Part shown: positions 1 to 30,234 of the stretch, piece after piece
How positions within the stretch are numbered: the first letter of the stretch is position 1
How the letters are laid out: each line of letters starts with the position of its first letter
Source: a virus
Taxonomy: Duplodnaviria > Caudoviricetes
Strand: one strand, 5' to 3'
Virus record (IMG/VR): IMGVR_UViG_3300016654_000061
Location: 1 to 35,262 of that record
Length of the DNA: 35,262 nt
Notes under the pieces: model-generated
The model's input: only the letters and a program-made list of their open reading frames with translations
Database searches by the model: none
Told to the model about the DNA's origin: nothing
Translations under genes and position numbers: made by a program

Positions 1-3000
1 CCGGCCCGCTACAACGTGGATGACATGATCGGCAGTTTCAAGGTCAAGTACCCCGAGTCTCAGGTTGAGGTGATGGCAAAAGGCACCCTGGCTAACGTCA
101 AGTATGTTGCTATGACCGCCAAAGGTATAACTGAGAATTACGCTCCTGAGTACATCGTTACCCCCCAAGCCGGTGCCCAACAACGTTTGGCTGAGAAAAA
201 AGCTAATGACCTGTATGCCAAAGTTTACGAGTTCTTAGGCAATAGCAGTCCCAAAGATATTAAGAGCGGGGTGGCGGTCAAGAACGCTGTGGATAAGTTT
301 GGCATTGACGCAACCCTCCGGGGCCTTGCCAACCTGCGTGCTCAGAAAGCCCAGATGCGAGAGAAGGCCGAGAGCGGCTTCGCCATGGACGACCGGATTC
401 TTGACGAGGCTCTTGCCTATTTCGACAAGACTTACAACTCTCAGGTCTACTTCTCCACCCGTGAAATGCGTGCGGCAGAAGAACCAAACGTGGGGTTTGC
501 CAACGAATTTTTGAATAAGACCGGTGGTGGTAAAACTCTTGGATACTCTGCAGTTGACTTGCTGCAGACAGTTGCTAGGCATGAGAAAAATACCGAAACA
601 GGCAGGCTCGCCCGCGTACTGCTGACCCAAGCCGATAAGTTTGGATTAAAAAATATTCCGGTTTTGTATAACCCAGCCGATGGAGCGGGCAGTTACTTTA
701 CCGTGTCGTTTTTAGATCCCAGTCAGCAAAAGATGTCGGTCCTCACAATTGGTAAAGAGCACCTCTATACTCCCGACGTTGCAATTCACGAAGTCATCCA
801 CGCCATGTCTGTGGTGCAGATGAACAAAGTTGAAAACCCCGAATACAAACGCACCGGGGCTCGATGGGAAACGGCTGCCGATGGTATGTTTGATTTGTTC
901 AGGCTCACAAATGCGTATGCCGTGAGTAAAAACGATACTAAACTCTTAAACCAGTACGGCATGACCGACGCCTATGAATTTTTGGCTGAGGCCCTTTCCA
1001 ATGAAGACTTTAAGGCTAAACTTAAATCCATATCTATTAAAGAGTTGAAGGGCGAACTGGAACAATACCGTTTAGGCAAAGAAGAGAAAAAAGCCCTTGG
1101 GTTGTTAGATCGTCTGGTCAAAGGTGCACGCAACGTCTACGAGATGTTTACCAAACTGTTGCGCCAAGCACTTAACTTGCCTGACAACTCTCAGACGGTA
1201 TTTGATGCCGTTGTGAACCAATTTGGCAAACTTATTCAACAGAGTACGCCCAGTTCGGTCATGTCCGCTAGGGGGTTTAGAGGAAAAGCGGGGGTCTACG
1301 AAAAAGCGGTAACACCAAAAAAGTACGGGCGGGACCCGCTGCCCGCTGAAGTCCTGCGGATTCTGGATGAGATTAAAAACAACCCGGCACTCAACATCCC
1401 CGGCTTTAAAGGTAAGGCCGATGCCCAGCGGGCCATCAAAACGGGTGCGTTGCCGTTCTTGTCAGCCAGCCAGATTCGTGACATCTATGGTTCTGACCCC
1501 CGTTTGTCTGAGTTAAGTGATTACTACACCGCTACACAAAAAATGGGCGGCTACCGCAACAAACTGCGGGAAAAGTTTGGCGACGTTCTGAATGACTTCT
1601 ACAAGGTCATCAAAGACAACAAGGGGCTGAAGGACAAACTGTTTGAGGTCATCAACGAGGGTTCACGCCTGGAAGTCGATGTGCTTAAACCGGCTTCGGA
1701 CTATAAAGATGCTGCCATGAAGGCTGACCATGCTCGGCTGCAGGCAATCTACAACTCGTTCCCACAAGATGTTAAGAACTTCTACCAGAAGTACCGCAAG
1801 AATAACGAGTTCATGCTGGACGAGATCAAGCAGTCGATGATTAAGCGGGCTACGAGTTACGTGTCGGACCCCCAAGCCAAGGCCGAAATCAAGGCCATGG
1901 TGGAGAAAAAGATCGACTCCTTTAAAGAAAAGGGGCCGTACGCACCGTTGATGTTCTTTGGTAATGACTGGGTGGTTGTCGGTAAAGACGATCAGGCCAT
2001 ACCTTTCTCCTTTGAGACCAAGACTCAAGCCGACGAGTTTGCCGCCAAGATGAAGCAGCAGGGCTACGAAACTAAACAATTTGAGTCAATTAAAGAACTT
2101 AAAGCCAATACAGCCCCCCGTGCTGGCTTCTTCAAACAGTTAGAAGGTGTACTTGACCGCAACCGGGTTAGCCCTAAAGCCAAGGACGAGATCTATCAGA
2201 TGACCCTGATGTATCTGCCCGAAGAGTCGTTCATGCGGCAGTTCCAGAACCGGAAGGGTGCCCCGTCCTACGAGCGTGACGCACTGCGGAACTATGGCGA
2301 GTTAGCCGACCGTATCGTACATCAGTTGCCCAAAGCCTCTTATATGTCTGAGATGGACACCGCCATCGAAGCAATGAAAAACAAGGTTAAGCAAGATCCT
2401 AGCAATGACGCAGGGCGGGTTGTTGCTGAGATAGAAAAGCATTTTGATGCAGCCATGAACCCAACAGTAAACCCATGGGCTACGCATTTAGGTAATTTGG
2501 GTTTTGCTTGGTATATGGGCGCTAACCCTTCAGCAGCACTTGTCCAGTTGTTACAGACCCCCAGCGTTACGCTGCCTTGGCTGGCCCCAAAATACGGTCT
2601 GAACCCCACGATGGCTGAACTTACCCGTGCCGGACGTGACTTTTTTGGCGGTAAGGTAAAGGCTGGTCAAGGGTTTTACAGCATCAAAACCAATCCGAAT
2701 CTAACGGCTACGGAGAAAAAGGCTATACAAGCCCTGTATGACTTGAACGTCATCCCCCCTGCTGCTACGGAAGTTGGTGACATCGAGACCATGACCGGGC
2801 TGAAAGCGGCAACTCCTCTTGAGAGAACAAACAAACGAATCAATTTCGTAATGGGGTATTTGTTCCAAAATGCCGAGCGTTTCAACCGGGAAGTTACTGC
2901 TCTGGCCGCATTCCGGCTGGAGTACAACCGCTCGAAGAACTACGACAAGGCTGTTCAGGCCGCAAACGATGCCGTAGTGGAGACCCAGGGCGACTACTCT

Positions 3001-4014
3001 GATCTGAACGCACCAAGTTTATTTAAAGGCCCAACTGCCAAAGTTCTGCTGATGTTCAAGAAGTTTTTGCAGATGATGATCTATATGTACGGCCGCAATC
3101 TACAGATTGCTATGGACCGCAACAAGTTTAGCCCCGAAGAGCGTAAGTTGGCAGTAAACCGTCTCGGTGGTTTGTTAGCTACGTCAGCCATGATGTCCGG
3201 TGTTATTGGCACGCCGTTCTACTGGATAGTAGAAACAATCATGAACGCCCTGTTCCGAGACGAAGAGGATCCGTACTACGACTTCACGACCAGTCTACGG
3301 GAAACGATGCCTGAATTTGTAACGGCTGGCATCCCCGGTGCTTTGACTGGAGCAAGTATTGCCTCTCGTACCGGCTTCCGTGACACGCCCCTACTTGGTT
3401 TTGTACCGGGCATTTCCTCCGGGGCCGGTGCAGACGCATACTCACAGGGCTTTGTAATAGATACACTGAAAGCAGGGTTGGGGCCAGTAGGCGGGATCGT
3501 GTTTAATGCGCAGCGAGGCATTGACCAAATTAACGAAGGTCAAGTAGGGCGCGGTATTGAAAATATGTTGCCTGCGGTTCTTAAAAATTTAATGAAATCT
3601 ATTCGCTACAACGACGAAGGTGCCCGCACCCTGCGAGGCGATCCGATTGTAGGCGAGGTTTCGACCTACGAACAGGCGTTGCAAGTGTTTGGATTTGCCC
3701 CCCTTAGTGTGGCTACCGCCCAAGAGAAGCGTAACGCCGCCATGGGTATCCAGACAGATGCCCAGACTTCTCGGCAGAATGTGTACATGCGTATCAATCT
3801 AGCGATTGCCACGGGTGACGATGAGGGCTACGAGAAAGCCCTAGAGTTGGTGGATAAGCACAATCGGAAGTATCCGGGCATGGAGATCAAACCAAGCCAA
3901 ATCCTGACATCGGTTCGGACTTTCCAGAAGCGTTCGGCAGATATGCTCGGCGGTGCGTACCTAGAGAAAGGTCTCCGGCCCTACCTAGCCCCGATGTTGT
4001 CCGCAGAAGAGTGA
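1..4014 (+). CDS. Large polyvalent virion/ejection-type protein, 5'-truncated by the window edge (zincin-like HExxH domain plus PLxRFG-like C-terminal region)
   Basis: Frame is open from base 1 (>1330 aa). HEVIH...EFLAEA metallopeptidase-like motif; YAPLMFFG resembles the PLxRFG signature; glycine-rich/hydrophobic C-terminus; last gene of the rightward arm. Confidence 0.7.
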   Translation, partial: PARYNVDDMIGSFKVKYPESQVEVMAKGTLANVKYVAMTAKGITENYAPEYIVTPQAGAQQRLAEKKANDLYAKVYEFLGNSSPKDIKSGVAVKNAVDKFGIDATLRGLANLRAQKAQMREKAESGFAMDDRILDEALAYFDKTYNSQVYFSTREMRAAEEPNVGFANEFLNKTGGGKTLGYSAVDLLQTVARHEKNTETGRLARVLLTQADKFGLKNIPVLYNPADGAGSYFTVSFLDPSQQKMSVLTIGKEHLYTPDVAIHEVIHAMSVVQMNKVENPEYKRTGARWETAADGMFDLFRLTNAYAVSKNDTKLLNQYGMTDAYEFLAEALSNEDFKAKLKSISIKELKGELEQYRLGKEEKKALGLLDRLVKGARNVYEMFTKLLRQALNLPDNSQTVFDAVVNQFGKLIQQSTPSSVMSARGFRGKAGVYEKAVTPKKYGRDPLPAEVLRILDEIKNNPALNIPGFKGKADAQRAIKTGALPFLSASQIRDIYGSDPRLSELSDYYTATQKMGGYRNKLREKFGDVLNDFYKVIKDNKGLKDKLFEVINEGSRLEVDVLKPASDYKDAAMKADHARLQAIYNSFPQDVKNFYQKYRKNNEFMLDEIKQSMIKRATSYVSDPQAKAEIKAMVEKKIDSFKEKGPYAPLMFFGNDWVVVGKDDQAIPFSFETKTQADEFAAKMKQQGYETKQFESIKELKANTAPRAGFFKQLEGVLDRNRVSPKAKDEIYQMTLMYLPEESFMRQFQNRKGAPSYERDALRNYGELADRIVHQLPKASYMSEMDTAIEAMKNKVKQDPSNDAGRVVAEIEKHFDAAMNPTVNPWATHLGNLGFAWYMGANPSAALVQLLQTPSVTLPWLAPKYGLNPTMAELTRAGRDFFGGKVKAGQGFYSIKTNPNLTATEKKAIQALYDLNVIPPAATEVGDIETMTGLKAATPLERTNKRINFVMGYLFQNAERFNREVTALAAFRLEYNRSKNYDKAVQAANDAVVETQGDYSDLNAPSLFKGPTAKVLLMFKKFLQMMIYMYGRNLQIAMDRNKFSPEERKLAVNRLGGLLATSAMMSGVIGTPFYWIVETIMNALFRDEEDPYYDFTTSLRETMPEFVTAGIPGALTGASIASRTGFRDTPLLGFVPGISSGAGADAYSQGFVIDTLKAGLGPVGGIVFNAQRGIDQINEGQVGRGIENMLPAVLKNLMKSIRYNDEGARTLRGDPIVGEVSTYEQALQVFGFAPLSVATAQEKRNAAMGIQTDAQTSRQNVYMRINLAIATGDDEGYEKALELVDKHNRKYPGMEIKPSQILTSVRTFQKRSADMLGGAYLEKGLRPYLAPMLSAEE

Positions 4015-4040
4015 AAAAAACCCCGGCGCTAGGCCGGGGT
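4014..4040 (-). terminator. Rho-independent terminator for leftward transcription
   Basis: Minus strand CCCCGGC-CTAGC-GCCGGGG followed by T7; stem 4021-4027/4033-4039; lies at the convergence of the two arms. Confidence 0.9.
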
Positions 4041-4102
4041 GAACGTTTACTTGAAGGAGAAAGTAAACACCATGAAGAGAGTGCAGAGGAGACGCACTAC
4101 TC
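4014..4102 (-). ncRNA. Candidate ~89-nt trans-acting sRNA with two anti-SD (UCUCCU) hairpin loops
   Basis: Promoter upstream, terminator downstream. Hairpins AGUGC-GUCUCCUCU-GCACU and GUUUACUU-UCUCCUUC-AAGUAAAC; 19/20 complementarity to the start region of the vWA gene. Confidence 0.65.
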
Positions 4103-4109
4103 AGGGCCA

Positions 4110-4138
4110 ATCCTACCCAATTATTTTTATAAAGTCCA
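4110..4138 (-). promoter_or_regulatory. sigma70-type promoter for the candidate sRNA
   Basis: TGGACT (4138-4133), 17-nt AT-rich spacer, TAGGAT (4115-4110); predicted +1 is G4102, the first base of hairpin 1. Confidence 0.6.
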
Positions 4139-4336
4139 TACGCGGATGCCTAGGACGCCCCCTTCGATCCGTACACGCAGTACAAATTGTTGTATTCCGT
4201 GGTATTTAAGTTCGGTTTCCAGGGCGTTTTTAGCAAAATCCACGTCTAAACAAGGGACAAATAAGGACTGGGGTGCTTTTTTCAGCATATCCCAATCCAA
4301 TTCATATCGCGCCCCATCAAGAATCAGGATGTCCAT
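4127..4336 (-). CDS. Hypothetical phage protein (69 aa)
   Basis: Last ORF of the tightly packed leftward operon; C-terminal GIRVW motif common in small phage DNA-binding proteins. Confidence 0.7.
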   Translation of the reverse strand: MDILILDGARYELDWDMLKKAPQSLFVPCLDVDFAKNALETELKYHGIQQFVLRVRIEGGVLGIRVWTL

Positions 4337-4589
4337 CGCTAGGGACTAGCTTGTATTCATATAAACCATTCCCGCAATAACGGCGCTCAATCGTATGCCC
4401 CCCAAACCTCGGCTTGCGCAAGTGCCGTAATTGAGCGCTTATGCTGGGTTCGGGGTCACCCGTAACTATAGATATCTGACCTAGCGTTCGCCATTTACCA
4501 TCAACCATGCAGTCCCAAACTCTGTACAGTTGATTTGATAGCCGTTGGTTGTCCCTTTCGGGCGTATAGTCAGCGCCGTTAAATCTCAT
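4317..4589 (-). CDS. Putative winged-helix DNA-binding protein (90 aa)
   Basis: DGKWRTLGQI...PSISAQLRHLRKPRFGG...YEY pattern; RBS AAGGA; operon packing. Confidence 0.7.
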   Translation of the reverse strand: MRFNGADYTPERDNQRLSNQLYRVWDCMVDGKWRTLGQISIVTGDPEPSISAQLRHLRKPRFGGHTIERRYCGNGLYEYKLVPSDGHPDS

Positions 4590-4591
4590 GG

Positions 4592-4777
4592 TTAATCCTT
4601 TATTTTGTAGAATTTTGAGCAGCCTATCTTAATTACATCTAGGCGCTGTTCTTCTGCCCATTGCCTAAGAATTTTGTTTACGTGACTTTGGCTGATGATG
4701 AAATACTTTGCCAACTTAGCCGGTGAAACCGGCGTTTTGTGCTCAACTAAGTACTTCCAAACTTTATCTTCAATCAT
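4592..4777 (-). CDS. Putative small winged-helix protein (61 aa)
   Basis: PVSPAKLAKYFIISQSHVNKILRQW HTH-like segment followed by a beta hairpin; overlaps the neighbouring gene. Confidence 0.65.
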   Translation of the reverse strand: MIEDKVWKYLVEHKTPVSPAKLAKYFIISQSHVNKILRQWAEEQRLDVIKIGCSKFYKIKD

Positions 4778-5102
4778 TTGGAATCAACTTCCCAAAAATG
4801 TTGTAGAAAGCCTTCGTAAACTTCTCGCGGGTTTGCCGCACCTCGGGCTCGTAATCCAGCGTGTCTGATACTTCCCACATACGCAACATAGTGTCGAGTT
4901 CTTTGGCGGCTTTGACCACACCAAGCCACGCATCGTTTTCTTTTTTGGTGGTTTCAATACCTAGCATCACCGCCCGCGTGAACATAGACTCAAACAGTTG
5001 TTGCATTACTTCTTTTGGAGCATCTAGTTCAAACGTCGCGCTGCCATCTTCGTGTTCGGTAGTTAGGCGTACCGTTAGTTCGCCAATCTTTTTGTCATTC
5101 AT
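4770..5102 (-). CDS. Hypothetical protein (110 aa)
   Basis: EHEDGSA motif frequent in small phage ORFs; start/stop overlaps on both sides. Confidence 0.75.
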   Translation of the reverse strand: MNDKKIGELTVRLTTEHEDGSATFELDAPKEVMQQLFESMFTRAVMLGIETTKKENDAWLGVVKAAKELDTMLRMWEVSDTLDYEPEVRQTREKFTKAFYNIFGKLIPND

Positions 5103-5304
5103 CTAGTAGCCCCTGAAATGTTTCATGGAAAGACCTTTCGATTTCCTCTACCACTATTTGTGCTTCTTCGCCGTGTCCGCCGTGTTTGCGGGTTAACCTT
5201 AAAAACTCTCTGAAGTTCTCAACAGCCATTGCATACTGCGGCCCACGATAAGCTTGCTCTGCCAGATTCTTTTCGTCGTCGTTGAACTCAAGAATAATCT
5301 TCAC
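5095..5304 (-). CDS. Hypothetical protein (69 aa, GTG start)
   Basis: Start re-called at GTG 5304 (GTGA overlap with the upstream stop; GGAG RBS). Confidence 0.7.
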   Translation of the reverse strand: MKIILEFNDDEKNLAEQAYRGPQYAMAVENFREFLRLTRKHGGHGEEAQIVVEEIERSFHETFQGLLDE

Positions 5305-5522
5305 TTCTGCATCTCCCTCTGCTGGTACTTCAAGTCCTCTTGCCCAACCCACAGGCCAGCACAGACCATCTCAAGGTCATTGGATACGGGGCGTTTGTAT
5401 AGAGCATCCTTGTAGCCTTTGGCAAAGCCTTCCTTGTATCCCTTGCGCTCACCAGCGTTAATGCCGACAACAAGAACTACAAGCAAGATTACGGCCCACA
5501 TAACAACTTCAAGAGTCTTCAT
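5301..5522 (-). CDS. Small membrane-anchored protein (73 aa)
   Basis: N-terminal hydrophobic helix followed by GYKEGFAKGY repeats; ATGA overlap. Confidence 0.7.
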   Translation of the reverse strand: MKTLEVVMWAVILLVVLVVGINAGERKGYKEGFAKGYKDALYKRPVSNDLEMVCAGLWVGQEDLKYQQREMQK

Positions 5523-5740
5523 AGCGCTATCCTCACTTCCGATTGAGTTTCAATCCACACATGCGCACCACACGACAGGGGTTTGTCGGGCGAATAAACA
5601 ACTTTGCATGGCCCGGCAATCTCTACTTCGTGGGCATAGGTGTTAGATTTGTATGTCTTAACAGTAAGAACGGGGTCGGTCTTACCTTCCTTGCGGTTAG
5701 ACTTGATGACATGTTGGTTAACGTGAACGATTGTCTTCAT
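5519..5740 (-). CDS. Conserved hypothetical phage protein (73 aa)
   Basis: HVNQH...VYSPDKPLSCGAHVWIET is a widespread phage motif; RBS AGGAGG. Confidence 0.8.
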   Translation of the reverse strand: MKTIVHVNQHVIKSNRKEGKTDPVLTVKTYKSNTYAHEVEIAGPCKVVYSPDKPLSCGAHVWIETQSEVRIAL

Positions 5741-5749
5741 TCATGCCTC

Positions 5750-5929
5750 CTAGAAAGGTGCGTCTTCTAGTTGCTGGACACGGTCGAGGATCTTCTGTGC
5801 TTCCTCTTGCTGGCCTTTGCGCTTGAGTTTGTCGAAATACTTGATGACCAATTGCCGCTCTTGCGTAGTTTTGAATGGGTGTTCCCATCTATCCACAGTT
5901 AGTCCACTTGGATGCATTTCTATCCTCAT
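5750..5929 (-). CDS. Hypothetical protein (59 aa; absent from the ORF track)
   Basis: Hand-translated MRIEMHPSGLTVDRWEHPF...LEDAPF; ATGA overlap with the upstream gene; fills the operon gap. Confidence 0.7.
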   Translation of the reverse strand: MRIEMHPSGLTVDRWEHPFKTTQERQLVIKYFDKLKRKGQQEEAQKILDRVQQLEDAPF

Positions 5930-6168
5930 GGTTGTTTCTCTTCAAGTTCAATGATCTTGTCGAGATAGTGCCGGGCTTTTTTGATGTCGATTACACCGCC
6001 CTTACCTTCCACGTTTTTCGTATTTACCCTTGCTAGATAGGCAATGGCAGACCCAAGCAAAAACCCACGAAACTGATTCGGAGTTAGCCAGGCCTCCATC
6101 GCATCCCAGGGTTGGATTCCAAGGGCTTTATAGTGATCTCCACCGATTTGTTCTTCGTTAGCATTCAT
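5926..6168 (-). CDS. DUF3310 / SaV-like protein (T7 gp1.7 nucleotide-kinase-like family)
   Basis: QIGGDHY...QPWD...F..G.AI.YL.R...KGG..DI.KA.HYL signature. Confidence 0.85.
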   Translation of the reverse strand: MNANEEQIGGDHYKALGIQPWDAMEAWLTPNQFRGFLLGSAIAYLARVNTKNVEGKGGVIDIKKARHYLDKIIELEEKQP

Positions 6169-8957: not shown

Positions 8958-8962
8958 GGGCG

Positions 8963-9208: not shown

Positions 9209-9210
9209 AG

Positions 9211-9246: not shown

Positions 9247-10107
9247 TTAGTCATCTGCCCATTGGGACAGTACGTCTTGAAGTTCGGGCTTAGATGCCGC
9301 CGCTTCAGCTTTCTCCGACTTGCGCTTGGTGGGTTCTGCAACCGCAGGAGCGGCTTCGGCAGTTGGCTTTGCCTTAGGTGCAGGGGGTTCATCGGTTTTA
9401 TCAACTTGTGCCACAGTCATCGTAATTGCCGATACGGCCGCGGGTGATTTGCTTTGCGTGATTGCGCCATCAATCTCGTCTTCGGTCAGCCAGCGGACTG
9501 GCTTAAAAGTCAGGCGGGGTGTAGCCGACTTAGTATCAAACCGAGCCTCAGTTACAACCGCCGTAATCGGGGTGCGTTGTGCCTTCAGGTACTTGGCATA
9601 CGCTTGCATGGGCATCCGGTCATTCTCGGGCTTACCAAAGATTGATTGTGATGGCAGCGTCAGTTGATACACGTCGCCATTGATGTCGTTATCCAGCACG
9701 ATGGCAAGACGCTGGGAGAAGCGGCAAGCGCGGGAATCGCCCTGACCGGAACCCTTGATGTTCTGAGGGCAGTCGGCACAAGCCGTAGCCTGTGGGTTGT
9801 GCGAGTCGGGGCTGGGCGCGGCGCCATCAGCAGACCAGCAATCGGGGGCGGCGTTCTTACCTTCCTCGTATGTACCTTCGTAGAAGGTGCGCGAAATGTT
9901 CGGGGCGGCGTTAACCACGACCATGTTCAGGCTACGATCTTCCCGCACGGCGATCTCTTGACCGCCATCCATGAGGCGAAATACGCCACCACGAATAGAA
10001 ATGCGCTTAAGGCCACTACCACCAGCCAATGAAGACGTAACATCATCTAATTGGCGGGCTTTGATGTGGGCGGGGACTGCATCTTTGAATAGAGTGATTT
10101 CACTCAT
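9247..10107 (-). CDS. Putative ssDNA-binding/annealing protein with a Cys4 site
   Basis: C.S.DG...CADCPQN.KGSG...RAC pattern; Ala/Pro-rich linker; acidic aromatic C-terminus (WADD); replication-module position. Confidence 0.6.
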   Translation of the reverse strand: MSEITLFKDAVPAHIKARQLDDVTSSLAGGSGLKRISIRGGVFRLMDGGQEIAVREDRSLNMVVVNAAPNISRTFYEGTYEEGKNAAPDCWSADGAAPSPDSHNPQATACADCPQNIKGSGQGDSRACRFSQRLAIVLDNDINGDVYQLTLPSQSIFGKPENDRMPMQAYAKYLKAQRTPITAVVTEARFDTKSATPRLTFKPVRWLTEDEIDGAITQSKSPAAVSAITMTVAQVDKTDEPPAPKAKPTAEAAPAVAEPTKRKSEKAEAAASKPELQDVLSQWADD

Positions 10108-10544
10108 TTGGATCTCCTCACGGTGATTGAATAAGAGTTTGCTACGTTAAGGCCTTTAGGCACTAGCGTGGGGTGTTCTTCCAGCCATGCCTTCAGGTTG
10201 GTTTGATTGATGCGCTTGTGCAAAATGCCATACAACTTGTGCTCATCAATGTACTCATACAACGATTCCCAATCGTTAGTTGAGTAGTCCGTCTTCACGG
10301 CGCGGATAATTGTGCCGTGTTTGGTCTTGATATTGCTTGCGCCGATGCCTTTGCATTTCTCAAGGAAGTGGTCTTCGATCGCCTTCATTTGCGCAAGGAG
10401 GACCTCTTCTTTCTCGGCAAATTCCTTTTGCAACTCGCGTAGGTGGTCACGAATCTTGATGTAGACCTTGACCATCTGATCTAGGGCAACTTCCTCGGGA
10501 GCCGCGCCAGCATTGGCTTCCTCTACTACTTGGTCTTCATTCAT
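10104..10544 (-). CDS. Conserved phage replication-module protein (coiled coil plus beta domain)
   Basis: N-terminal coiled coil, KTKHGT, DW...Y, PKGL; RBS AAGGAG. Confidence 0.75.
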   Translation of the reverse strand: MNEDQVVEEANAGAAPEEVALDQMVKVYIKIRDHLRELQKEFAEKEEVLLAQMKAIEDHFLEKCKGIGASNIKTKHGTIIRAVKTDYSTNDWESLYEYIDEHKLYGILHKRINQTNLKAWLEEHPTLVPKGLNVANSYSITVRRSK

Positions 10545-10571
10545 GGTGTACTCCTTGTTGTTATGACTACT

Positions 10572-10600: not shown

Positions 10601-12150
10601 GTAGTTAGTTCGCGGTAAAGCGAAATTATTTGTTGGTGGACATCCAACTTGCTTTGCAACATCTTGTAGATTCGCTTCTCGGCGGGACTGCCTTCCAGGT
10701 GAACAACGGTGACGGGGTTATGTTGTCCGTGTCGATGAACCCGAGCGTTGGCTTGCAGATATGTCTCTAGGCTAGTCGTTGGGCCAAACCATACGATTGT
10801 GTTTGCCGCCGTTAGCGTCACGCCATGCGCCGCCGCCTGTGGCTGAATGACTAGCACCTTGGGCGTGGCCTCCGACTGGAACCGCCGAAAGATGTCGGTT
10901 CGCGCCCTCGCCGAAACCTCCCCATTGATGATCTCGTTGGGATATCCCTTACGCGTTAAAAAGTCTGACACCACGTTGATTGCGTGTTTGAACGGCACAA
11001 ATATCAGGCTCTTGTGACTGGTTTCGGCAAGGACCGCTTCTAGTTCTGACAAACGGTTCGAGCAGTCAAACTCGATAACCTCTCCCCCATCCGAGTACAC
11101 CGCACCAGCAGATATCTGAAGCAACTTGTTAAGAACTGCTGCCGCATTTACACCGGACACTTCCTCCCCCGCCGCCACCAGCAGGGCTTGTTGTTTCATT
11201 TGGTGATAGTACTTTTCCTGTTGCTTGGTAAGGGGGACTTGGCGTGTCTCGTACGACATCTCCGGTAAGTCAAGACATTCGGCTTTGGTGAATCGAATGG
11301 CTGGCTGAAGTGCTTCATGCACAGTCTGACTGGCGTTGTCTTTGGGTAACCACCGAAACTGAGTAGCCTTCCACATGACTTTGTCTCGCCACGATCCCAC
11401 AAACTTTGGCACGCGATCAGGACAGACCAACCGTGCCAACCCGTACGCATCTTCCGGTGACTGAGCCGCAGGCGTTCCCGTTAACATCCATAGCCAGCGC
11501 GTGGAACCAACAAGTTTATTCATTACCTTCCAGCGGCGCGTGCTAATAGTCTTGTAGGCATTGGCTTCATCAATCACTATCAAATCAAAATTGTTTTTGT
11601 CAATCTCTTCAGCAATGATCTCTACGCCATCGAAGTTGATGATGACAAACTCGGCGTGTCCATTGACAACCTTCTTGCGTTTATCCGGTGTGCCGTGGGC
11701 TACATCGCATGACCGATGCATAGCAAACTTAAACAAGTCGTCTTGCCATGCAGACTGCATGATTGAGAGGGGGCATACCACAAGCACTCGGCGTATGAAG
11801 CCCAGTTTCATTAGGTAGTCTGCCGCCCATATCACAGAGGCGGTCTTGCCTGTCCCCTGCTCGTTAAAGCAGAACGCCCTGCGGTGCAGGGTGAGGAACG
11901 ATGCGGTTTCGATTTGGTGTTTGAATGGCTTGTATAAGCCCCTGAACTCGTAGTGACCTACGATTGGTGATGGGACATTCTTCACGCCTATGTTCTTAAG
12001 AACTTGCGCTTCTTCTAGTCCCCAATGAACTGCGACTTTGGAGATTCCGTTGGGCAAAACTTCAAGGGTCTTGCTCTTGGGAATGATCGCAGTAACCCTG
12101 TCGGGCTTCTTGAGATTTAATAAAAGTACTTTGTTATCAACTATTTCCAT
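10597..12150 (-). CDS. SNF2-family (SF2) helicase
   Basis: EQGTGKT (motif I), VVCPLS (Ia), IDEA (II), LTGTP (III), HGVTLTAA (V), QANARVHR.GQ (VI). Confidence 0.93.
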   Translation of the reverse strand: MEIVDNKVLLLNLKKPDRVTAIIPKSKTLEVLPNGISKVAVHWGLEEAQVLKNIGVKNVPSPIVGHYEFRGLYKPFKHQIETASFLTLHRRAFCFNEQGTGKTASVIWAADYLMKLGFIRRVLVVCPLSIMQSAWQDDLFKFAMHRSCDVAHGTPDKRKKVVNGHAEFVIINFDGVEIIAEEIDKNNFDLIVIDEANAYKTISTRRWKVMNKLVGSTRWLWMLTGTPAAQSPEDAYGLARLVCPDRVPKFVGSWRDKVMWKATQFRWLPKDNASQTVHEALQPAIRFTKAECLDLPEMSYETRQVPLTKQQEKYYHQMKQQALLVAAGEEVSGVNAAAVLNKLLQISAGAVYSDGGEVIEFDCSNRLSELEAVLAETSHKSLIFVPFKHAINVVSDFLTRKGYPNEIINGEVSARARTDIFRRFQSEATPKVLVIQPQAAAHGVTLTAANTIVWFGPTTSLETYLQANARVHRHGQHNPVTVVHLEGSPAEKRIYKMLQSKLDVHQQIISLYRELTT

Positions 12151-12219
12151 GGTGTTTACAGATGCGTTTGCAGGCGTATGTGAAGTTTCACATCGCCCTT
12201 GGGTACTGCACCGCTTGAG

Positions 12220-15462: not shown

Positions 15463-16306
15463 ATTGATCTCTTAGTTGCTGAAGATCACGACCATACAGG
15501 AAGTATGAGTTGGCTTCAACTTTAACCCCGATGTCCTCCAACACATCCTTGTGTGGCGCGATCTTGAGCAGGGCGATCTTCGATCTGATGAAGTCAGGCA
15601 TCTCATCAAAGTCTTGATACTCAACTACCCTGCCTTCGGTTGTACTACCAAAGATGTTGAGTATCCAGCGGTTGCCTACTTGGAACGCAATGACTTGCAT
15701 AGCAGACTGCGAGCCAGCGTTCGTGTTCGACTTCATCCACACCATGTGGTCGAGGCGTTCTCTAAATTCAATGACTGCTTGCTTCGCGGCATCGGGTATG
15801 GGTCTAGGATTGCCAAGCACCAAGTCATACATCAGGTCACCATAGTCTAAATGGAGTCCTCCGCGTGCATCGTTAGCCGCACGCTCTGCTTTCCACACTA
15901 GATTGTTAATGTAGCGATGACCTTCTTCGAGGATTACTTTAGCCCGCTCAAGCAAAGAGAATGGCTTAGCATACTCATCAATAATTTTAATGATGACTTT
16001 CTCTTTGGTGGTGCGCTTCTCGTTTCGGGGGTGTCGCTCGTTGCAAATTAATCGAGACTGGATACACAGACGATGGTTGTCTGAAGTATCGTTCAGTTGG
16101 TCCACATAGACTGTCACAAACTCATAGGGGGATTCCTCGGTGTACGCAGTAAACGCTACCAACATGCTTACTTTGTTATCACCCATGTAGAACTCACGAA
16201 TGTTGTGGTCTTTGTATGAGAAAGACACACCAGCAAAGCGTTTCTTCAGGCGGTCCATAGCGATCTTGAGTTTGGGGTGTACGGCAGGGGATTGATAGTC
16301 TGTCAT
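15416..16306 (-). CDS. Hypothetical protein (296 aa)
   Basis: Long ORF with the shared leader AGAAAGGAAATACC-ATG. Confidence 0.8.
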   Translation of the reverse strand: MTDYQSPAVHPKLKIAMDRLKKRFAGVSFSYKDHNIREFYMGDNKVSMLVAFTAYTEESPYEFVTVYVDQLNDTSDNHRLCIQSRLICNERHPRNEKRTTKEKVIIKIIDEYAKPFSLLERAKVILEEGHRYINNLVWKAERAANDARGGLHLDYGDLMYDLVLGNPRPIPDAAKQAVIEFRERLDHMVWMKSNTNAGSQSAMQVIAFQVGNRWILNIFGSTTEGRVVEYQDFDEMPDFIRSKIALLKIAPHKDVLEDIGVKVEANSYFLYGRDLQQLRDQYDTREESQEESNNPT

Positions 16307-16330
16307 GGTATTTCCTTTCTAGTTGTGAGT

Positions 16331-17190: not shown

Positions 17191-18060
17191 TTAAAACGAC
17201 ATCCGCTTCAGGATGTCATCGACTTCGGCTTTAACATCTTTCCGAATCTCGGGGCTATCACGCAGTTCCTTCGCAGACACAGATGAGATTGCTTTCTCAA
17301 GTTGTTTGCGTGATTTCTCTAGTTCAGGATCTCGTGTGATGTTCATGTGTTGCAACACCTCAATAAGTTCTAGGGCGTTATCCACCAATGAATCGCGGAA
17401 GATCTTCTTGTCTGCACCATCACCAGTAAAGTCAAGGCGCTCGCTCATGCGGCTCAGACATTCATGCAGTCGTTCCCACGCATCTTTCATTGCGGCTTTG
17501 ACGCGTGTCTCCACCTGCGACTCGTACTTGCCGATCAACTCTTTGATACCTTCGTTGGCAATGTCCACGCGGAAGTCACCGAACTCAGGCACAGGTGAGT
17601 ACACATAGTTAAACCGGAACTTACTAGCGATCGAATCCACAGTCGGGTAGTCATCACGATTGAACAAGTCGCCAAGTGTGAACGCCGCTGTCGACACCAT
17701 ACTGTTGTACTCTGCAAGAAGTTTGTCCTTGTAGTTGTTGAACTCTACTTCTGCTGTCTGCATTATGGCGTTGTACTTCATGAAGTTGCCCATTGTGAGC
17801 AGTCGCGTGCCTGAGTCAGACCATGGTTGGGTCAGTTGATAATGGTCGTCACGAATCTTGTTGACCATCTTGTTCATCTGTTCGATCAGGTTGTCGCCAG
17901 CAAACAAGTTCTTGTGAAAGTTGCCGGCCCTAGCCTTCGTACCTTTGGCTTGGTCAATCTCTTCAGATACTTTCTTGTCCATCTTGCGTGCAGTCCACAT
18001 AGAGATGTTGAGGTCTACAAGTACTGCGCTCGATGAGAGGCTTGTGATTTCCATGTTCAT
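17191..18060 (-). CDS. DUF3150-like helical protein, partner of the AAA/vWA module
   Basis: Start re-called at 18060 after GAAAGGAAACATC. W...K.D, T.PW.D.G.RLL, LGDLFN..DYP motifs; position next to vWA. Confidence 0.7.
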   Translation of the reverse strand: MNMEITSLSSSAVLVDLNISMWTARKMDKKVSEEIDQAKGTKARAGNFHKNLFAGDNLIEQMNKMVNKIRDDHYQLTQPWSDSGTRLLTMGNFMKYNAIMQTAEVEFNNYKDKLLAEYNSMVSTAAFTLGDLFNRDDYPTVDSIASKFRFNYVYSPVPEFGDFRVDIANEGIKELIGKYESQVETRVKAAMKDAWERLHECLSRMSERLDFTGDGADKKIFRDSLVDNALELIEVLQHMNITRDPELEKSRKQLEKAISSVSAKELRDSPEIRKDVKAEVDDILKRMSF

Positions 18061-18071
18061 GATGTTTCCTT

Positions 18072-19385
18072 TCATTTGATATAAACGACTTGACCATGAC
18101 TAGGCATGGCTCGGCTATCACCAACAACTACCCACAACACAGGACTGCTGATACCCTGCGGGTCGCCCCACCCAGGCACATAGCCATCTGTTAGTACAAC
18201 GATTGCATCGGGCTGAACGGAACTCGATTCCGCTCGGAGATAGTCAAAGACACAGGCGGGGTCAGTACCACCACCGCCACGCACAGACTCGATGTCCATG
18301 ATCGACATACCACTATCGCGCTCGAATCGTTTGTGTGATTCGACCTGCGTATCCCACGCCAGCACATCGAGAATTTCGGGGTTAACTTCTTCGCGGATAG
18401 ATTCCAACTCAGAGAAGAACTGATCCCTCAAGTCACCATCAACCGAACCCGATACATCAACGCCACCCACGACACGACTGGTCGTCTCGCTGTAACTACT
18501 TGGCATGTAAATACCAAGCGATTGCAAACGCTTGTTGGGTTTGGCGTAGGTCGATAGGTCTTTGCCGGACATCGATGCCTTGATGAAGTCACGCATAACC
18601 TGCTTCCAGTCCAGCATCGGCTCGAGCAACTCGCCCAGTCCCAGTTCAGAATCGCCAGCAGACAGCCCGTACTTCTTGCACATAGCCTTGGACAACATCT
18701 CGCCTTGGCGTATGGCTTGGTCGATCTGAGATTTCAATGCGTCTTGCTCTTTTTGAGACAGTTGTTGCGGAGACTTATGGTCATGCTGATCGAACGACTC
18801 GGGCGTGCTGGTGTTAGCAGAAGGATTGCTTGGCGGTCGGGTGTTCGACTGCTTCTGACCACCGCCCTGACCTTGCTGACCTTGCTGACTTTGACCACCC
18901 TGCTGGTTGTTGTTGCTAGGTCTCTGTGGATTCTGACGATTGGATTTGATGAGTCGATAGACCATGCCAGCATCCATCCCACGATACTGCTCATCGTAGA
19001 CACCACCGATCGATGGGAACTTAGCGACTCTCTCGAACGGACCAACAGGTTGGTTCCAGTCCTCGATCATCAGGTTGATGACCGCATCGCAGGCAACGCC
19101 AGCAGTCTCAGCATCCTCATCGAACAGGTGTTTCCACAGGGTCGTGTGCTGGAACATCTTGTGGAAGTTCTCATGGGCGATAACAAACGCCAACTCCTTG
19201 TCATCCAGTTGGTCAATGAACTCAGGGTCATACCACTCGTTGCGCCCATCAGTACATGCCGTACCCCATCCTTCTTCGATAGTCACCTTGCCCATCAGCA
19301 TGATGCCGGACAACGCACAGAACTTCGGGTGTGTCATCAAGGCAACGCGTGCTTTCGCTACTCGTTGTTCAGGTGTTAGTTTCAT
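18072..19385 (-). CDS. DUF2201-type putative metallopeptidase plus vWA domain protein
   Basis: TACTDG, HENFH (HExxH), Q/N/G-rich linker, MIDAS DVSGS...GGGT...LTDG. Confidence 0.9.
   Translation of the reverse strand: MKLTPEQRVAKARVALMTHPKFCALSGIMLMGKVTIEEGWGTACTDGRNEWYDPEFIDQLDDKELAFVIAHENFHKMFQHTTLWKHLFDEDAETAGVACDAVINLMIEDWNQPVGPFERVAKFPSIGGVYDEQYRGMDAGMVYRLIKSNRQNPQRPSNNNQQGGQSQQGQQGQGGGQKQSNTRPPSNPSANTSTPESFDQHDHKSPQQLSQKEQDALKSQIDQAIRQGEMLSKAMCKKYGLSAGDSELGLGELLEPMLDWKQVMRDFIKASMSGKDLSTYAKPNKRLQSLGIYMPSSYSETTSRVVGGVDVSGSVDGDLRDQFFSELESIREEVNPEILDVLAWDTQVESHKRFERDSGMSIMDIESVRGGGGTDPACVFDYLRAESSSVQPDAIVVLTDGYVPGWGDPQGISSPVLWVVVGDSRAMPSHGQVVYIK
18219..18231. promoter_or_regulatory. Degenerate operator-like site inside the vWA gene (GGAACTCGATTCC)
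   Basis: Flanks GAAC...GCTCGG match those of the 23607 copy; the right half-site has an extra mismatch. Confidence 0.4.
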
Positions 19386-19404
19386 GGTGTTTCCTTTCTC
19401 GAAT

Positions 19405-19432: not shown

Positions 19433-20515
19433 TTACTTAACATCGGGCAACATCCAATGGTTGTCCATTGCCCACTTGGCGAACTCCGCATTGCGGATTG
19501 TGAAGTCGCGCTTGTCCTTGATCTGATACAGGTTCGTACCGAACAGGGCTTGCGACTCCCGAGGCAGACGCTTCACATACTTAACGACTGCGGTCAGGTT
19601 GTCCTTCGTTGCGTAGTTCAGGGCTTGCTGAACCTGAATACACACAGCGATTGGATTGTCAGGTACACGCACACCAGTAGGATCTTTGATAATGTTTGCC
19701 CAGTCCTCAAGTTCCTGCTCTACGCTTGAGTACGCTTGCAGATCCGCCGCCGCGCTTGCACCGATAACGCCAGCCAAGTTCTTGTGGATGACACTCTCGG
19801 ACAGAACATCACGCCTATCCAATATGATCGATGCCCTAGCCAGCGACCGAGGCGCAACGAACGAACGCTTCGGCAGTTGTGGGAAATAGATATACGGATT
19901 GGGCGGGGCTTTGGGGTTGAAGTCCTTGCCAGCAAAGTCTGTGTACGACTGGAGACAATGCGGGTTCTTGTAGACCCAAGCCATCAGGGTTGGATTGATC
20001 TTGTTGTTACGAGCCCAAGTCAGCCACGCCTCTGCATCAGGTTTGCGTACATACAGATAGTCGATGCGAGAGATGAAGTGTGGAGGCATGTTGTCACCAA
20101 CGCCATCGGTTGTCATGTTACCGGTTGCAAATACAACAGACCCATCAGTCAGGTTCTTGTCGTACAGACGCCGGTCGTTGAAGGTTGGCATCAGCATGTT
20201 CATCACAGGGCGAGCAGACTTGGTCAACTCGTCTAGCAACATGACAACATCTTTACCCTTGTGAATCCCGAACCGAGCATTGGGTAGGAACTCAGTACAT
20301 CCCGACTCTTTGTCCTGATAGGGAGTGCCAAGGTCGCCCAACTCTAGGGTTGCACAGTCGATGGGTGCGTACTCATACCCCAACTCCGTAGCAATTTCCT
20401 GACCCATGGCAGTCTTGCCAATGCCAGGCTCACCGCATAGGAAGATGGGTACTTTGTTGCCAATGGCGAGAATCGACTGCTTGGCTTCTTCGAGGGTTAC
20501 TTGTTGCATATCCAT
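19433..20515 (-). CDS. MoxR/CobS-like AAA+ ATPase
   Basis: Walker A GEPGIGKT, Walker B MLLDE, sensor-1 ATGN, SR arginine finger, PRS sensor-2; adjacent to a vWA gene. Confidence 0.9.
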   Translation of the reverse strand: MDMQQVTLEEAKQSILAIGNKVPIFLCGEPGIGKTAMGQEIATELGYEYAPIDCATLELGDLGTPYQDKESGCTEFLPNARFGIHKGKDVVMLLDELTKSARPVMNMLMPTFNDRRLYDKNLTDGSVVFATGNMTTDGVGDNMPPHFISRIDYLYVRKPDAEAWLTWARNNKINPTLMAWVYKNPHCLQSYTDFAGKDFNPKAPPNPYIYFPQLPKRSFVAPRSLARASIILDRRDVLSESVIHKNLAGVIGASAAADLQAYSSVEQELEDWANIIKDPTGVRVPDNPIAVCIQVQQALNYATKDNLTAVVKYVKRLPRESQALFGTNLYQIKDKRDFTIRNAEFAKWAMDNHWMLPDVK

Positions 20516-20546
20516 GGTGTTTCCTTTCTTGTGGTTAACTTCGGAT

Positions 20547-20561: not shown

Positions 20562-20972
20562 TCACTTCGACATCAGTCGAGCGATCTTCGTCTCAAGATA
20601 CTGAATGACAATATCCAGTCGGCGAATCTCTTCGACCAGTTCAAAGTTCTTGGCGATGGCTTCGTCAAGTTTGTCAGCCAGCCCCTTGCTAAAGAAGTCT
20701 AGTCCTACGCTTGGTTTGGTTGGCTTGAGTGGCTTGGCTGAACTACGCATACCACGATTGTGTTCCTCGACTATCTGCACTTGGTCGGGGTGCTTTGGCA
20801 CTCGGCGTACATACGCACGCACTTTGCCCTTGTTTTCCTTCTTCGCTTTCCTATTAAGCAAGTATCGCTGTGCATACACCCGCTTGATAGGCACATTGAG
20901 TTCCTTGGCAATTTCTTGGTTGGTCTTACCCATAATAATTTGGGTGCGGATTTTTACATTGATGTCTTTCAT
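20562..20972 (-). CDS. Basic protein with N-terminal HTH and C-terminal coiled coil
   Basis: KTNQEIAKELNVPIKRVYAQRY; leucine-zipper-like C-terminus; shared leader. Confidence 0.75.
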   Translation of the reverse strand: MKDINVKIRTQIIMGKTNQEIAKELNVPIKRVYAQRYLLNRKAKKENKGKVRAYVRRVPKHPDQVQIVEEHNRGMRSSAKPLKPTKPSVGLDFFSKGLADKLDEAIAKNFELVEEIRRLDIVIQYLETKIARLMSK

Positions 20973-20985
20973 GGTATTTCCTTTC

Positions 20986-21066
20986 TTAGTGTGGATTTAA
21001 GGCGAGTATTACTAGACCTGCTACTACAACTGCAAACACAACTACATCTATAAATTCAGGTTTCAT
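20986..21066 (-). CDS. 26-aa single-TM peptide (absent from the ORF track)
   Basis: MKPEFIDVVVFAVVVAGLVILALNPH; RBS GGGAGG; ATGA overlap. Confidence 0.65.
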   Translation of the reverse strand: MKPEFIDVVVFAVVVAGLVILALNPH

Positions 21067-27649: not shown

Positions 27650-30028
27650 ATGGCTATTGATAAGGCACTTTACGAAGCCCCCCAGGGGCTGCAGGCTCTA
27701 GATATGGAGCCAATTGAGATTCAGATCGAAGATCCGGAGTCTGTAAACATTGGTATAGACGGCATTGAGATTGAAATTGAGCCCGGACGCAAGCAAGAAA
27801 CGGGCATAAAAGACTTTTATGCCAACCTGGCTGAGCACATGGAGGAGAGCGCCCTTCAGATGCTGTCTGAAGAATTGATTGACAACTTTGATAATGACAA
27901 GCGCTCAAGAAAAGAGTGGGAGAAGACCTATAAAGAAGGCCTTGACTTGCTCGGTTTGCGTATTGAGAACCGCACAGAGCCGTGGCCCGGGGCCTGCGGC
28001 GTGTTTCACCCGATACTAACTGAGGCTACGGTGCGCTTTCAGTCCGAAGCGATCATGGAGACGTTTCCTCCAAGGGGCCCAGTTAAGGCCAAGATCCTAG
28101 GTAAAGAAGATGCCATGGCTGAAAAAGCTGCTGAGCGCGTCAAAGACTATATGAACTACGTGTTGACCGAGAAAATGGTCAATTACCGCTCTGAGCATGA
28201 GCGTATGTTGTGGTCCCTACCCCTGACTGGCTCTGCCTTTAAGAAGGTTTACTACGACCCAACGGTTAAACGCCCCGAGGCAATCTTTATTCCTGCCGAA
28301 GACTTCGTTGCACCGTTTACGGCGTCGGATCTAGAGTCATGCGAGCGGTTTACGCACGTCATGCGCAAGGTCAAAAACGAGATTCGCAAGATGCAGATAA
28401 GCGGTTTTTACCGCGACGTCGAGCTAGAAGACCCCCCAGAAGTAGTTACAGACGACGTGAAGAAGTCTCAGGCCGAGGCTCAGGGCATCGACATCATTAA
28501 AGATGACCGATACACCCTGCTTGAGATGAATGTAAACCTTGATTTAGAGGATGACCCATACCGGGCCGAGGGCGGCATTGAGATTCCATATGTAGTCACC
28601 GTTGATTACAACAGTGGTCAGGTGCTGTCGATCTATCGCAACTGGAATGACGATGACGAAACCTATAAACGACGTATGCACTACGTCAAATACGATTACG
28701 TGCCCGGATTTGGTTTCTATGGTTACGGTCTTATCCATCTTATTGGTGGGCACGCCAAGTCTGCTACTTCTCTACTGCGCCAACTTATTGACGCTGGAAC
28801 ACTTTCCAATCTTCCGGGTGGCCTAAAGACCCGGGGTATGCGGATTAAAGGGGACGACACCCCGATCATGCCCGGCGAGTTCCGTGATGTGGACGTGCCA
28901 AGCGGCAAGATCCAAGAAAATATCGCGTTTTTGCCCTACAAAGAGCCCAGCCAGACGCTTTTGCAGTTGTTTGACAAGATTGTTGAGCAGGGACGGGGTA
29001 TGGCAGCGGTTGCTGACCTGAAAATTGGTGATGTTGACCAAAATACGCCGGTTGGTACCACGCTGGCGGTCTTGGAACGCATGCTCAAGATCATGTCTGC
29101 CGTTCAGGCACGTATGCACGCGACACTTAAGCGTGAATTTGGGCTTCTAAAAGAGATTATTGCTACGACGCCCCCCGCTTCCTACGAGTACAACGTTGAT
29201 CCGGACCGGATGGTCAAGATGCCGGACTTTGACCGGGTAGATGTGATCCCTGTTTCGGACCCGAACGCATCAACTTTTTCTCAACGCATGCTGCAGTACC
29301 AAGCAGCCCTGCAGTTGTCCAAAGAAAAGCCAGAATTGTTTGACCAACCCGAGCTGTATCGCGGGATGATCCGCCTGATTGGCTTTGAGAACGCCGATAA
29401 GATTGTGCCGAAGAAGGACGAGGTGCCGTATCGTGACCCCGTGTCTGAAAACGCCATGATTCTTCAGGGCAAACCGGTTAAAGCATTCCCGGAACAGGAC
29501 CATGAGGCCCACATAACTGTACATACAACAGCTATGCAGGACCCGAAGATCCGTGAATTGGTCGGCCAATCACCCCAGGCTAATGCACTCATGGCTGCAG
29601 CCCAGGAACACATTGCCGAACACATGGGATACGCCTATCGCAATCAGATTCAGCAGGCCCTTGGCATTGAGATTCCAGAGTTGGGCGCCAAAATGGACCC
29701 CCTTATGGAGAACCAGCTGTCTCGCCTTATGGCAGATGCCGCTAAGAAGGTGCTTTCTCAGAGCCAAGCCGAGGTTGCCCAGAAAGAAGCCATGGCCCAA
29801 GCCAAAGACCCCCTTAATGAGATCCAGCGCCAAGAACTTCAGATCAAAGCAGCCGAAGTTGAGCGCAAAACCAAGAAGGACATGTCTGACGCCGCCCTGC
29901 GTTCCGCCGAGCTGGCTATTAAACAGGAAGAAGTGGAAGCCAAGGGGCGAGAACTACAGTCCAAACTTGCTTCCCAAGAAACTATGGAGGGCTTTAGAGC
30001 AGCAGTTAACTTGAGGAAAGGCGGGTAA
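27650..30028 (+). CDS. Portal protein
   Basis: 792 aa immediately after TerL; GSAFKKVYYD, GFYGYGL; C-terminal coiled coil as in P22-like portals. Confidence 0.88.
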   Translation: MAIDKALYEAPQGLQALDMEPIEIQIEDPESVNIGIDGIEIEIEPGRKQETGIKDFYANLAEHMEESALQMLSEELIDNFDNDKRSRKEWEKTYKEGLDLLGLRIENRTEPWPGACGVFHPILTEATVRFQSEAIMETFPPRGPVKAKILGKEDAMAEKAAERVKDYMNYVLTEKMVNYRSEHERMLWSLPLTGSAFKKVYYDPTVKRPEAIFIPAEDFVAPFTASDLESCERFTHVMRKVKNEIRKMQISGFYRDVELEDPPEVVTDDVKKSQAEAQGIDIIKDDRYTLLEMNVNLDLEDDPYRAEGGIEIPYVVTVDYNSGQVLSIYRNWNDDDETYKRRMHYVKYDYVPGFGFYGYGLIHLIGGHAKSATSLLRQLIDAGTLSNLPGGLKTRGMRIKGDDTPIMPGEFRDVDVPSGKIQENIAFLPYKEPSQTLLQLFDKIVEQGRGMAAVADLKIGDVDQNTPVGTTLAVLERMLKIMSAVQARMHATLKREFGLLKEIIATTPPASYEYNVDPDRMVKMPDFDRVDVIPVSDPNASTFSQRMLQYQAALQLSKEKPELFDQPELYRGMIRLIGFENADKIVPKKDEVPYRDPVSENAMILQGKPVKAFPEQDHEAHITVHTTAMQDPKIRELVGQSPQANALMAAAQEHIAEHMGYAYRNQIQQALGIEIPELGAKMDPLMENQLSRLMADAAKKVLSQSQAEVAQKEAMAQAKDPLNEIQRQELQIKAAEVERKTKKDMSDAALRSAELAIKQEEVEAKGRELQSKLASQETMEGFRAAVNLRKGG

Positions 30029-30033
30029 ACACC

Positions 30034-30234
30034 ATGGGGATGTCTATAGAGGAGAAGTACTCAGAGGAGTTGCGTCAAGAGTTGGAAAGGCAGGCAGAAG
30101 ACCTAGCAATGGGCTCGGCCGACGACTACCCCGAATATAGGGAGCGCGTTGGTTACGTCAAAGGGATTATGTTTGCCGCAGACGCATTTAAATCAATTGC
30201 TAATAGAGCAAGAAAGGAACCATTAGATGATTAG
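30034..30234 (+). CDS. Small conserved head-module protein (66 aa)
   Basis: L..G...DY.EY...VG...GI pattern; located between portal and GroES. Confidence 0.75.
   Translation: MGMSIEEKYSEELRQELERQAEDLAMGSADDYPEYRERVGYVKGIMFAADAFKSIANRARKEPLDD

Follow-up and report, generated by a model that had tools for sequence, protein, structure and literature searches.

Small RNAs (sRNAs) that base-pair over the initiation region of an mRNA block binding of the 30S subunit. The C4 antisense RNA acts in trans and controls one antirepressor operon of a temperate phage, and in T4 the RegA repressor, which is a protein, shuts off early mRNAs through their initiation regions. Here, we describe a conserved element in IMG/VR record IMGVR_UViG_3300016654_000061 (Duplodnaviria; Caudoviricetes), the whole of which, 35,262 nucleotides (nt), was analysed and is called the window below. 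The element is a minus-strand unit of promoter-like boxes, two hairpins and an intrinsic terminator at 4014-4138, where the early and late gene arms converge. Comparison among related phages gives strong support for pairing of the predicted RNA with the starts of the phage's own early genes, and the unit probably specifies a trans-acting sRNA that blocks ribosome loading on mRNAs of the early replication arm.

Known RNAs of similar form are the double-hairpin RNAs of family RF02278 (Betaproteobacteria toxic sRNA), which in the available portions of the literature are chromosomal, are aimed at host metabolism through CU-rich stretches directed against ribosome-binding sites (PMC5688073, PMC4603805) and inhibit growth of E. 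coli on expression (PMC4603805). The unit resembles them as a short structured RNA with an intrinsic terminator and CU-rich unpaired stretches complementary to ribosome-binding sites, and RF02278 is its best Rfam match, at 28.8 bits against a cut-off of 50 and with the first stem not formed in the alignment. No Rfam family matched the window's unit or ten relative loci at gathering level. Unlike the RF02278 RNAs, the unit is carried by a phage, has an anti-AUG or spacer seed in addition, and changes along with phage leaders. The start-associated sequences (SAS/ESAS) of Cluster K mycobacteriophages form a shared, non-palindromic tag at the ribosome-binding sites of non-structural genes, in some cases with clade-specific inverted repeats ahead of it, and one copy lies in the opposite orientation in four genomes (PMC3203893). 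That article leaves undecided whether RNA or protein binds the tag; the word 'antisense' does not occur in its main text, where no antisense RNA gene is proposed. The present phages likewise carry their tag on the starts of non-structural genes, but they belong to another group, the window's leader does not match the 13-bp SAS consensus, and the opposite copy sits within a promoter-hairpin-terminator unit and co-varies with the tag.

C4 of P1/P7 is also a phage RNA that represses phage genes by pairing with short targets, as far as the consulted text describes it (PMC8201110). RF01695 (C4) was absent from the window to E 1 and from 3900-4300 to E 5. The unit is flanked by o69 and a DarB-like gene rather than by an antirepressor (immI-type) operon, it would address many unlinked starts, and no integrase was found in this phage group (o69 and similar labels are gene names specific to this analysis, the number giving the codons). 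Like the proposed RNA, sar, OOP, aQ, sas, VpdS, PreS, 24B_1 and DicF are carried by phages and regulate translation through base-pairing. In the portions of PMC12197685 available, each is described as antisense in cis to a single gene or as acting on host genes or on Hfq, and none as reading a tag common to a set of the phage's own genes. For the virulent phage PAK_P3, two late sRNAs with single candidate phage targets are reported in the text available (PMC4933390). The closest functional analogy lies with T4 RegA and the T4 endoribonuclease RegB, both of them proteins. RegB brings about group shut-off of early mRNAs at initiation regions and has no clade-specific RNA key in the account consulted (PMC1702504). 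In the available open-access texts, with supplements (including the sRNA table of PMC12197685) outside the scope of the search, we found neither this architecture described for this phage group nor a phage trans sRNA reading the shared leader of its own early genes.

The original prediction assigned a promoter, two hairpins and a U7 terminator to the minus strand, and all of these elements are present there (Table 1). It also placed an anti-Shine-Dalgarno motif in both loops, which is what the window's fold displays, but only the CUCCU of hairpin 1 is invariant in close relatives, the loop of hairpin 2 being variable. The linker UUCAUGGU between the hairpins is single-stranded in the fold. The segment 4014-4103 (minus strand) folds at -33.1 kcal/mol (z -5.72, with none of 200 shuffles equal or better) and retains a z of -3.95 when the terminator is removed (2 of 200 shuffles equal or better). 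Since the opposite strand folds equally well (z -6.67), folding cannot assign the strand, which is assigned by the T tract and the -10 box. An own predicted promoter and intrinsic terminator in an intergenic position, as read from sequence and conservation, agree with a trans-encoded sRNA. The terminator is also the predicted end of the entire early arm. A generic promoter scan listed one promoter-like site in 3000-7000, located elsewhere, and did not call the unit's promoter, while the terminator was listed. Two metatranscriptome runs contained 9% and 5% of the words of 3500-5500, and their reads covered only 4807-5303, outside the unit.

Table 1. Positions in the window of the minus-strand unit, its predicted targets and the adjoining genes.
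Feature	Position	Strand	Remarks
-35 box TGGACT	4138-4133	-	predicted; within final codons of o69
-10 box TAGGAT	4115-4110	-	predicted; 17-nt spacer from -35 box
Small RNA, ~89 nt	4014..4102	-	predicted; 5' end (GAGU from 4102) placed from the -10 box
Hairpin 1	4077..4102	-	anti-Shine-Dalgarno loop UCUCCUC at 4092-4086; possible second seed
Main seed UCAUGGUGUUUACU	4062..4075	-	complementary to start codon and spacer; 5' half single-stranded
Hairpin 2	4045..4068	-	loop UCUCCUUC; weaker, variable among relatives
Intrinsic terminator	4014..4040	-	stem 4040-4020, seven T at 4020-4014; faces early strand
o286 start	10100..10127	-	predicted target, absent from the original prediction
o146 start (DUF7307, Pam3 gp33-like)	10540..10560	-	predicted target, 10/10 at 10540-10549; most consistent across clades
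Helicase start	12148..12159	-	predicted target, 12/12
o296 start	16303..16320	-	predicted target, two differences
o294 start	18056..18073	-	predicted target, two differences
DUF2201 vWA/metallopeptidase start	19381..19400	-	predicted target, 19/20; weakly kept among relatives
AAA ATPase start	20513..20529	-	predicted target, 16/17
o136 start (weak helix-turn-helix matches)	20968..20986	-	predicted target, two differences
Late gene o66 start, between portal and GroES-like gene	30009..30040	+	12/12 at 30025-30036
End of DarB-like/LPD39 giant gene	16..4014	+	converges on unit; no plus-strand terminator found here
o69, 69-codon gene, function unassigned	4127..4336	-	marks junction in most clades; 3' end carries predicted promoter

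Eight matches between the unit and gene starts of the phage had been claimed; each lies where it was placed and on a start codon, and the eight rank highest when both strands of the window are searched exhaustively. For 18056-18073 the start concerned is the ATG at 18060 rather than that of the longest ORF (open reading frame), at 18075. Of 39 early-strand starts, counted without the ATG that lies opposite the unit itself, 9 form a helix of at least 10 contiguous Watson-Crick pairs with the unit; 200 dinucleotide shuffles gave 0.3 on average and never more than 3, and 11 of 1172 other ATG windows reached this length. The sole late gene with a long match, o66, has the strongest predicted binding in this phage (-26.2 kcal/mol); its leader differs in relatives G004 and G002, and relatives use a GTG start. 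When 51 called starts were ranked with accessibility taken into account, o66, vWA, polymerase, o68, o296 and AAA came near the top and o136, helicase and o146 within the first 15. A short, imperfect seed facing several unlinked initiation regions, conserved or co-varying with them, is a further property of trans-acting sRNAs found here.

Conservation in the close group was followed through scans with o69, which returned 8 viral and 11 metagenome loci, of which 18 were examined and one ending inside o69 was excluded. The unit is complete in 16 of the 18, and the terminator is present in as many; one locus is cut off, and L041 has the promoter and seed without the terminator. At L041:3426-3580 an inverted piece of an upstream gene takes the terminator's place, by rearrangement or as an assembly chimera. 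Ten aligned close variants, the window among them, all have TGGACT, TAnnAT at 17 nt, CTCCT, TCATGGTGTTTACT and the same 14-nt main seed, while the spacer, the stems and hairpin 2 vary; the invariance of the -35 box is confounded by the coding of o69. Hairpin 1, in which 97% of alignment cells are paired, and the terminator are kept, with one compensatory change only. As for the targets, the helicase, o146, AAA, o294 and o296 starts keep a matching ACACCATG-type spacer in most close relatives; the vWA and o66 starts do not. An exact search of viral contigs for the 19-nt seed gave no matches and a scan with the C-terminus of the giant gene no loci, and a pattern search gave seven loci, four of them true homologs and three unrelated.

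The unit recurs at the same junction in distant relatives. A scan with the primase yielded 42 loci, 31 of which constitute a distant set at about 36-47% primase identity. At 14 of 18 distant viral junctions, many of these being near-copies of each other, the gap between o69 and the giant gene holds a box resembling a -10, a short folded RNA rich in C and U, and a terminator for the early strand; the remaining four comprise one with a terminator end only, two without a gap (L059, L078) and one that is cut off. The -10 boxes of the distant units, picked by eye, are mostly TATAAT, TACAAT or TATACT. Seven additional phage contigs were taken from genome bins (in seven other bins the primase had no match, and one more gave a fragment only), and five of them have a unit at the junction; G020 and G021 do not. 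A covariance model built on the close group gave nine matches in 506 kb, six of them distant junction units, with scores of 13-20 bits, a likeness that may owe more to shape than to common descent. In phage Rollin, where other genes follow the primase, no such unit was found.

The distant seeds differ between clades, and each fits the leaders of its own phage. In G007 the seed GCACUCUUCUU faces AAGGAGAGUGC ahead of o146, o294, o286 and two more genes, and in G011 the seed UUUCUCCAAGG faces CCUUGGAGA ahead of AAA, o294 and o146, each with 10-11 pairs, and ahead of helicase and others, the helix extending 5' of the Shine-Dalgarno sequence. The AAA start pairs over 13 positions in G006 and G009, the helicase and o146 starts over 12/12 in L080, and the o146 start over 13 in G016. 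Co-variation of seed and leader in relatives at the arm convergence, which the original prediction had anticipated, was thus found, and it could be quantified by helix length, used as the measure because duplex energies separated cognate from foreign pairs poorly (longer units score better). The comparison used gene starts from an in-house caller and unit boundaries drawn by eye, on phages that are related to one another. Over ten phages the o146 start forms 10.6 pairs with its own unit and 6.3 with foreign ones, and none of 20,000 random pairings was as good; for the helicase, over up to ten phages, the figures are 8.4 and 5.7 pairs with one pairing in 20,000 as good, and for o286, AAA and o294 as many as 1, 4 and 7 of 20,000 random pairings equalled the true one. 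The regulon had been imagined as centred on the AAA/vWA module, but the vWA match (365 of 20,000) proved largely this phage's own, and the conserved core of the predicted regulon consists of o146, helicase, o294, AAA and o286. The control genes (polymerase, exonuclease, primase, helix-turn-helix, portal, capsid and terminase) did not co-vary (1357-12637 of 20,000).

In a five-clade matrix (window, G007, G006, G011 and L080, picked after the own-leader results had been seen, with G007 replacing the weaker G008 and G010 omitted) cognate hits numbered 36, 27 and 18 at thresholds of 9, 10 and 11 pairs, against 27, 10 and 2 across the 20 non-cognate cells, and the true pairing was the best of 120 at each threshold. 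With eight phages pooled, G008 included, 31 of 325 early-strand starts were matched, as against 2 of 268 late-strand starts. All matches of at least 9 pairs in five fresh unit-bearing contigs fell on early-strand genes and always included o146. The helicase tree suggests about seven distinct seed types, and the seeds of G007 and G011 differ at 75% helicase identity. In 3 of 14 phages (G004, L080 and G026) nothing in the genome matches the o146 start better than the unit does, and in G016 there is a tie; the count in this comparison is inflated by the template strands of sister leaders.

Several observations weigh against an sRNA acting on these leaders. The five fresh contigs gave a weaker result: the true pairing was equalled or surpassed by 4 of 120 pairings at the 9-pair threshold and by 15 of 120 at the 10-pair threshold, and foreign units matched the leaders of G019 and G023 more often than the cognate ones did. 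Nor can the ten phages be counted as independent, since L080 and its sister G023 have similar seeds and the seed of G006 is in part that of G017. For a single gene, a helix of 10-11 pairs is also found elsewhere in the genome. No early start reached 9 Watson-Crick pairs in G008 (0 of 50) or G010 (0 of 15), although four of the best five starts in G008 use the clade seed at 8 pairs. Covariation within the hairpins of the close group was not above shuffles. The junctions of L059, L078, G020 and G021 have no unit, so the group can do without it. Host mRNAs may also be targets, because the leader style occurs at low frequency in Burkholderiales genomes. The RNA itself is a predicted transcript. 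Natural loss controls are offered by L078:10523, L059:4870, L171:9070 and L175:8830, where o69 abuts the giant gene with neither unit nor terminator gap.

If the unit works as an sRNA, its transcription would start at a sigma-70-type promoter within the end of o69, or the RNA would be freed as a stable 3' end from the early transcript, whose terminator it shares; the two routes could also coexist. In the window's clade pairing would nucleate at the start codon through the unpaired UUCAUGG and spread from there into the spacer and the Shine-Dalgarno sequence, whereas in other clades an exposed 5' seed or a loop seed would take this role, and the duplex would occlude the 30S site on early mRNAs. 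Since the RNA lies at the end of the arm that it would control, the simplest action is a delayed negative feedback, which would cap or end synthesis of the helicase, o146, o286, o294 and the AAA ATPase and spare the polymerase, the primase and most virion genes. With a host-type promoter and no operator-like site near it, the RNA could act as a damper from the onset of infection, and release from the early transcript would make it a delayed shut-off. Dependence on Hfq is hinted at by the U tail only. As no plus-strand terminator was found, one may speculate that late read-through from the giant gene would yield a perfect antisense to the RNA.

Should this prove true, the unit would be an RNA counterpart of T4 RegA and RegB and a new way of timing a phage programme, with a regulon defined by a shared leader tag and with key and locks changing together across a phage family. 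The SAS question in mycobacteriophages becomes directly testable through the single opposite-orientation copy, and the present set supplies about seven natural seed-leader pairs that can be used for orthogonality tests without phage culture. A bolder extension, which we regard as unlikely, is that the RNAs form a lock-and-key immunity code in which each clade's private early-gene tag and matching RNA time its own replication and silence incoming phages with the same tag. Seeds and clade-specific palindromes would then diversify in the manner of repressor immunity groups, and such a repressor-like, multi-gene RNA switch would explain start-associated sequences in other phages.

The RNA could alternatively be a broad anti-ribosome-binding-site RNA directed mainly against host mRNAs, like the Burkholderia double-hairpin RNAs, with phage leaders matching through the host's style of starting genes. 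This is improbable, even though RF02278 is the best Rfam match, the invariant CUCCU loop could read any strong Shine-Dalgarno sequence, and 129 of 201 Burkholderiales genomes contain the motif AAGGARAHACCATG (267 matches, including one from the unpublished genome G055, on which no conclusion rests) as compared to 13 of 61 Alphaproteobacteria (15 matches). The starts of capsid, portal and terminase must suit the host as well and yet do not co-vary, and late-strand starts are hardly matched at all. Moreover, the motif occurs four times in the 35-kb window against about 1.3 times per whole Burkholderiales genome, the late genes of the phage itself lack it, and the helicase start pairs 12/12 despite having no clear Shine-Dalgarno sequence in the close group. 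A conserved stretch upstream of that start (12150-12215, minus strand) resembles a hairpin.

Little credence is likewise given to a reading in which the same leaders are paired with another outcome, such as mRNA stabilisation, guided cleavage or a cis fold-back of the 3' tail of the early polycistron. The unit does share the early arm's terminator and directly follows the primase and o69 in distant clades, and the comparisons support the pairing rather than any effect of it. Nevertheless, in every clade the helix falls on the Shine-Dalgarno sequence, the spacer or the start codon, positions at which pairing usually prevents initiation. A separate -10 box is retained immediately upstream, and the targets are 6 to 26 kb distant.

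That the plus strand is the working one is very unlikely. Late transcripts running past the giant gene would in that case carry a copy of the leader, as a decoy for a leader-binding protein or as a short-peptide ORF, and a strong ribosome-binding site with an ATG is indeed readable on that strand, which folds equally well, lacks a detected terminator and keeps the same short reading frame in 6 of 7 close variants. The 45-codon plus-strand ORF, whose use would have told against the original prediction, is however not conserved: its lengths in the close group are 45, 13, 13, 23, 23, 15 and 11 codons, thus 11-23 in the six close relatives, the frame is shifted in L041, and an ATG on the opposite strand is missing altogether from 10 of 12 distant units. 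The T tract and the -10 box are oriented toward the early strand, and the G-U pairs of the helices function in the antisense direction only. Scarcely credible, and largely refuted, is the notion of a mere early-arm terminator with an upstream pyrimidine-rich run whose matches are chance or relics of leader duplication: the Rfam scores do derive mostly from the terminator, and purine-rich leaders will pair with any CU-rich RNA (up to 7 foreign starts are matched by the window's unit at 9 pairs), but the fit is not reproduced by shuffles, non-cognate units or the seven control genes, and the seed is invariant while its flanks vary.

The window is part of an uncultured, podophage-like genome of about 62 kb; its completeness is 56% (CheckV), and near-complete relatives span 62-67 kb. 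Its portal shares 37-42% identity with the portals of HTVC023P, CRP-901 and MinM2-type phages, and no close cultured phage was found in these comparisons. No tyrosine integrase or resolvase was found in the records of five relatives, four of which are at least 90% complete. The minus-strand early arm encodes primase, a helix-turn-helix protein, helicase, exonuclease, family A polymerase, the DUF2201 vWA protein and the AAA ATPase, and the plus strand carries terminase, portal, GroES-like, capsid and the DarB-like giant gene. The junction gene o69 ends in R-V-W in most clades and is 83-90% identical among close relatives; it matched no Pfam or PHROG family, and its atlas matches were all below 0.9. 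In regard to the host, a primase scan of genome contigs gave zero matches and a plasmid search no close relative, while a capsid scan returned 50 contigs in bins from many unrelated taxa, which looks like mis-binning. The leader style, natural in Burkholderiales and rarer in Alphaproteobacteria, weakly hints at a betaproteobacterial host.

Other features of the early arm deserve mention. The genes o296, o274 and o136 (15416-17174 and 20562-20972, minus strand) have 32-41% identity among phages whose neighbouring genes have about 80%, and are thus fast-evolving genes within the predicted regulon. A 13-bp palindrome, GGAACT-N-AGTTCC, has 12 close copies between 12511 and 25180 in the distal early arm (e.g. 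at 12511, 16331, 19405, 20547 and 25168), often 25-45 nt upstream of start codons. It is common to G003 and G004, while G002, G007 and G006/G009 each have another palindrome at 9-18 sites. It resembles an operator or activator box particular to each clade and calls to mind the inverted repeats of ESAS; the association of such operator-like palindromes with matched starts was not significant (10 of 42 vs 23 of 186, p 0.09). Finally, short A/T-rich direct repeats (families D8 and D9) occupy 23732-24161, a gene-poor stretch by the divergence of the two arms and a possible origin or promoter region.

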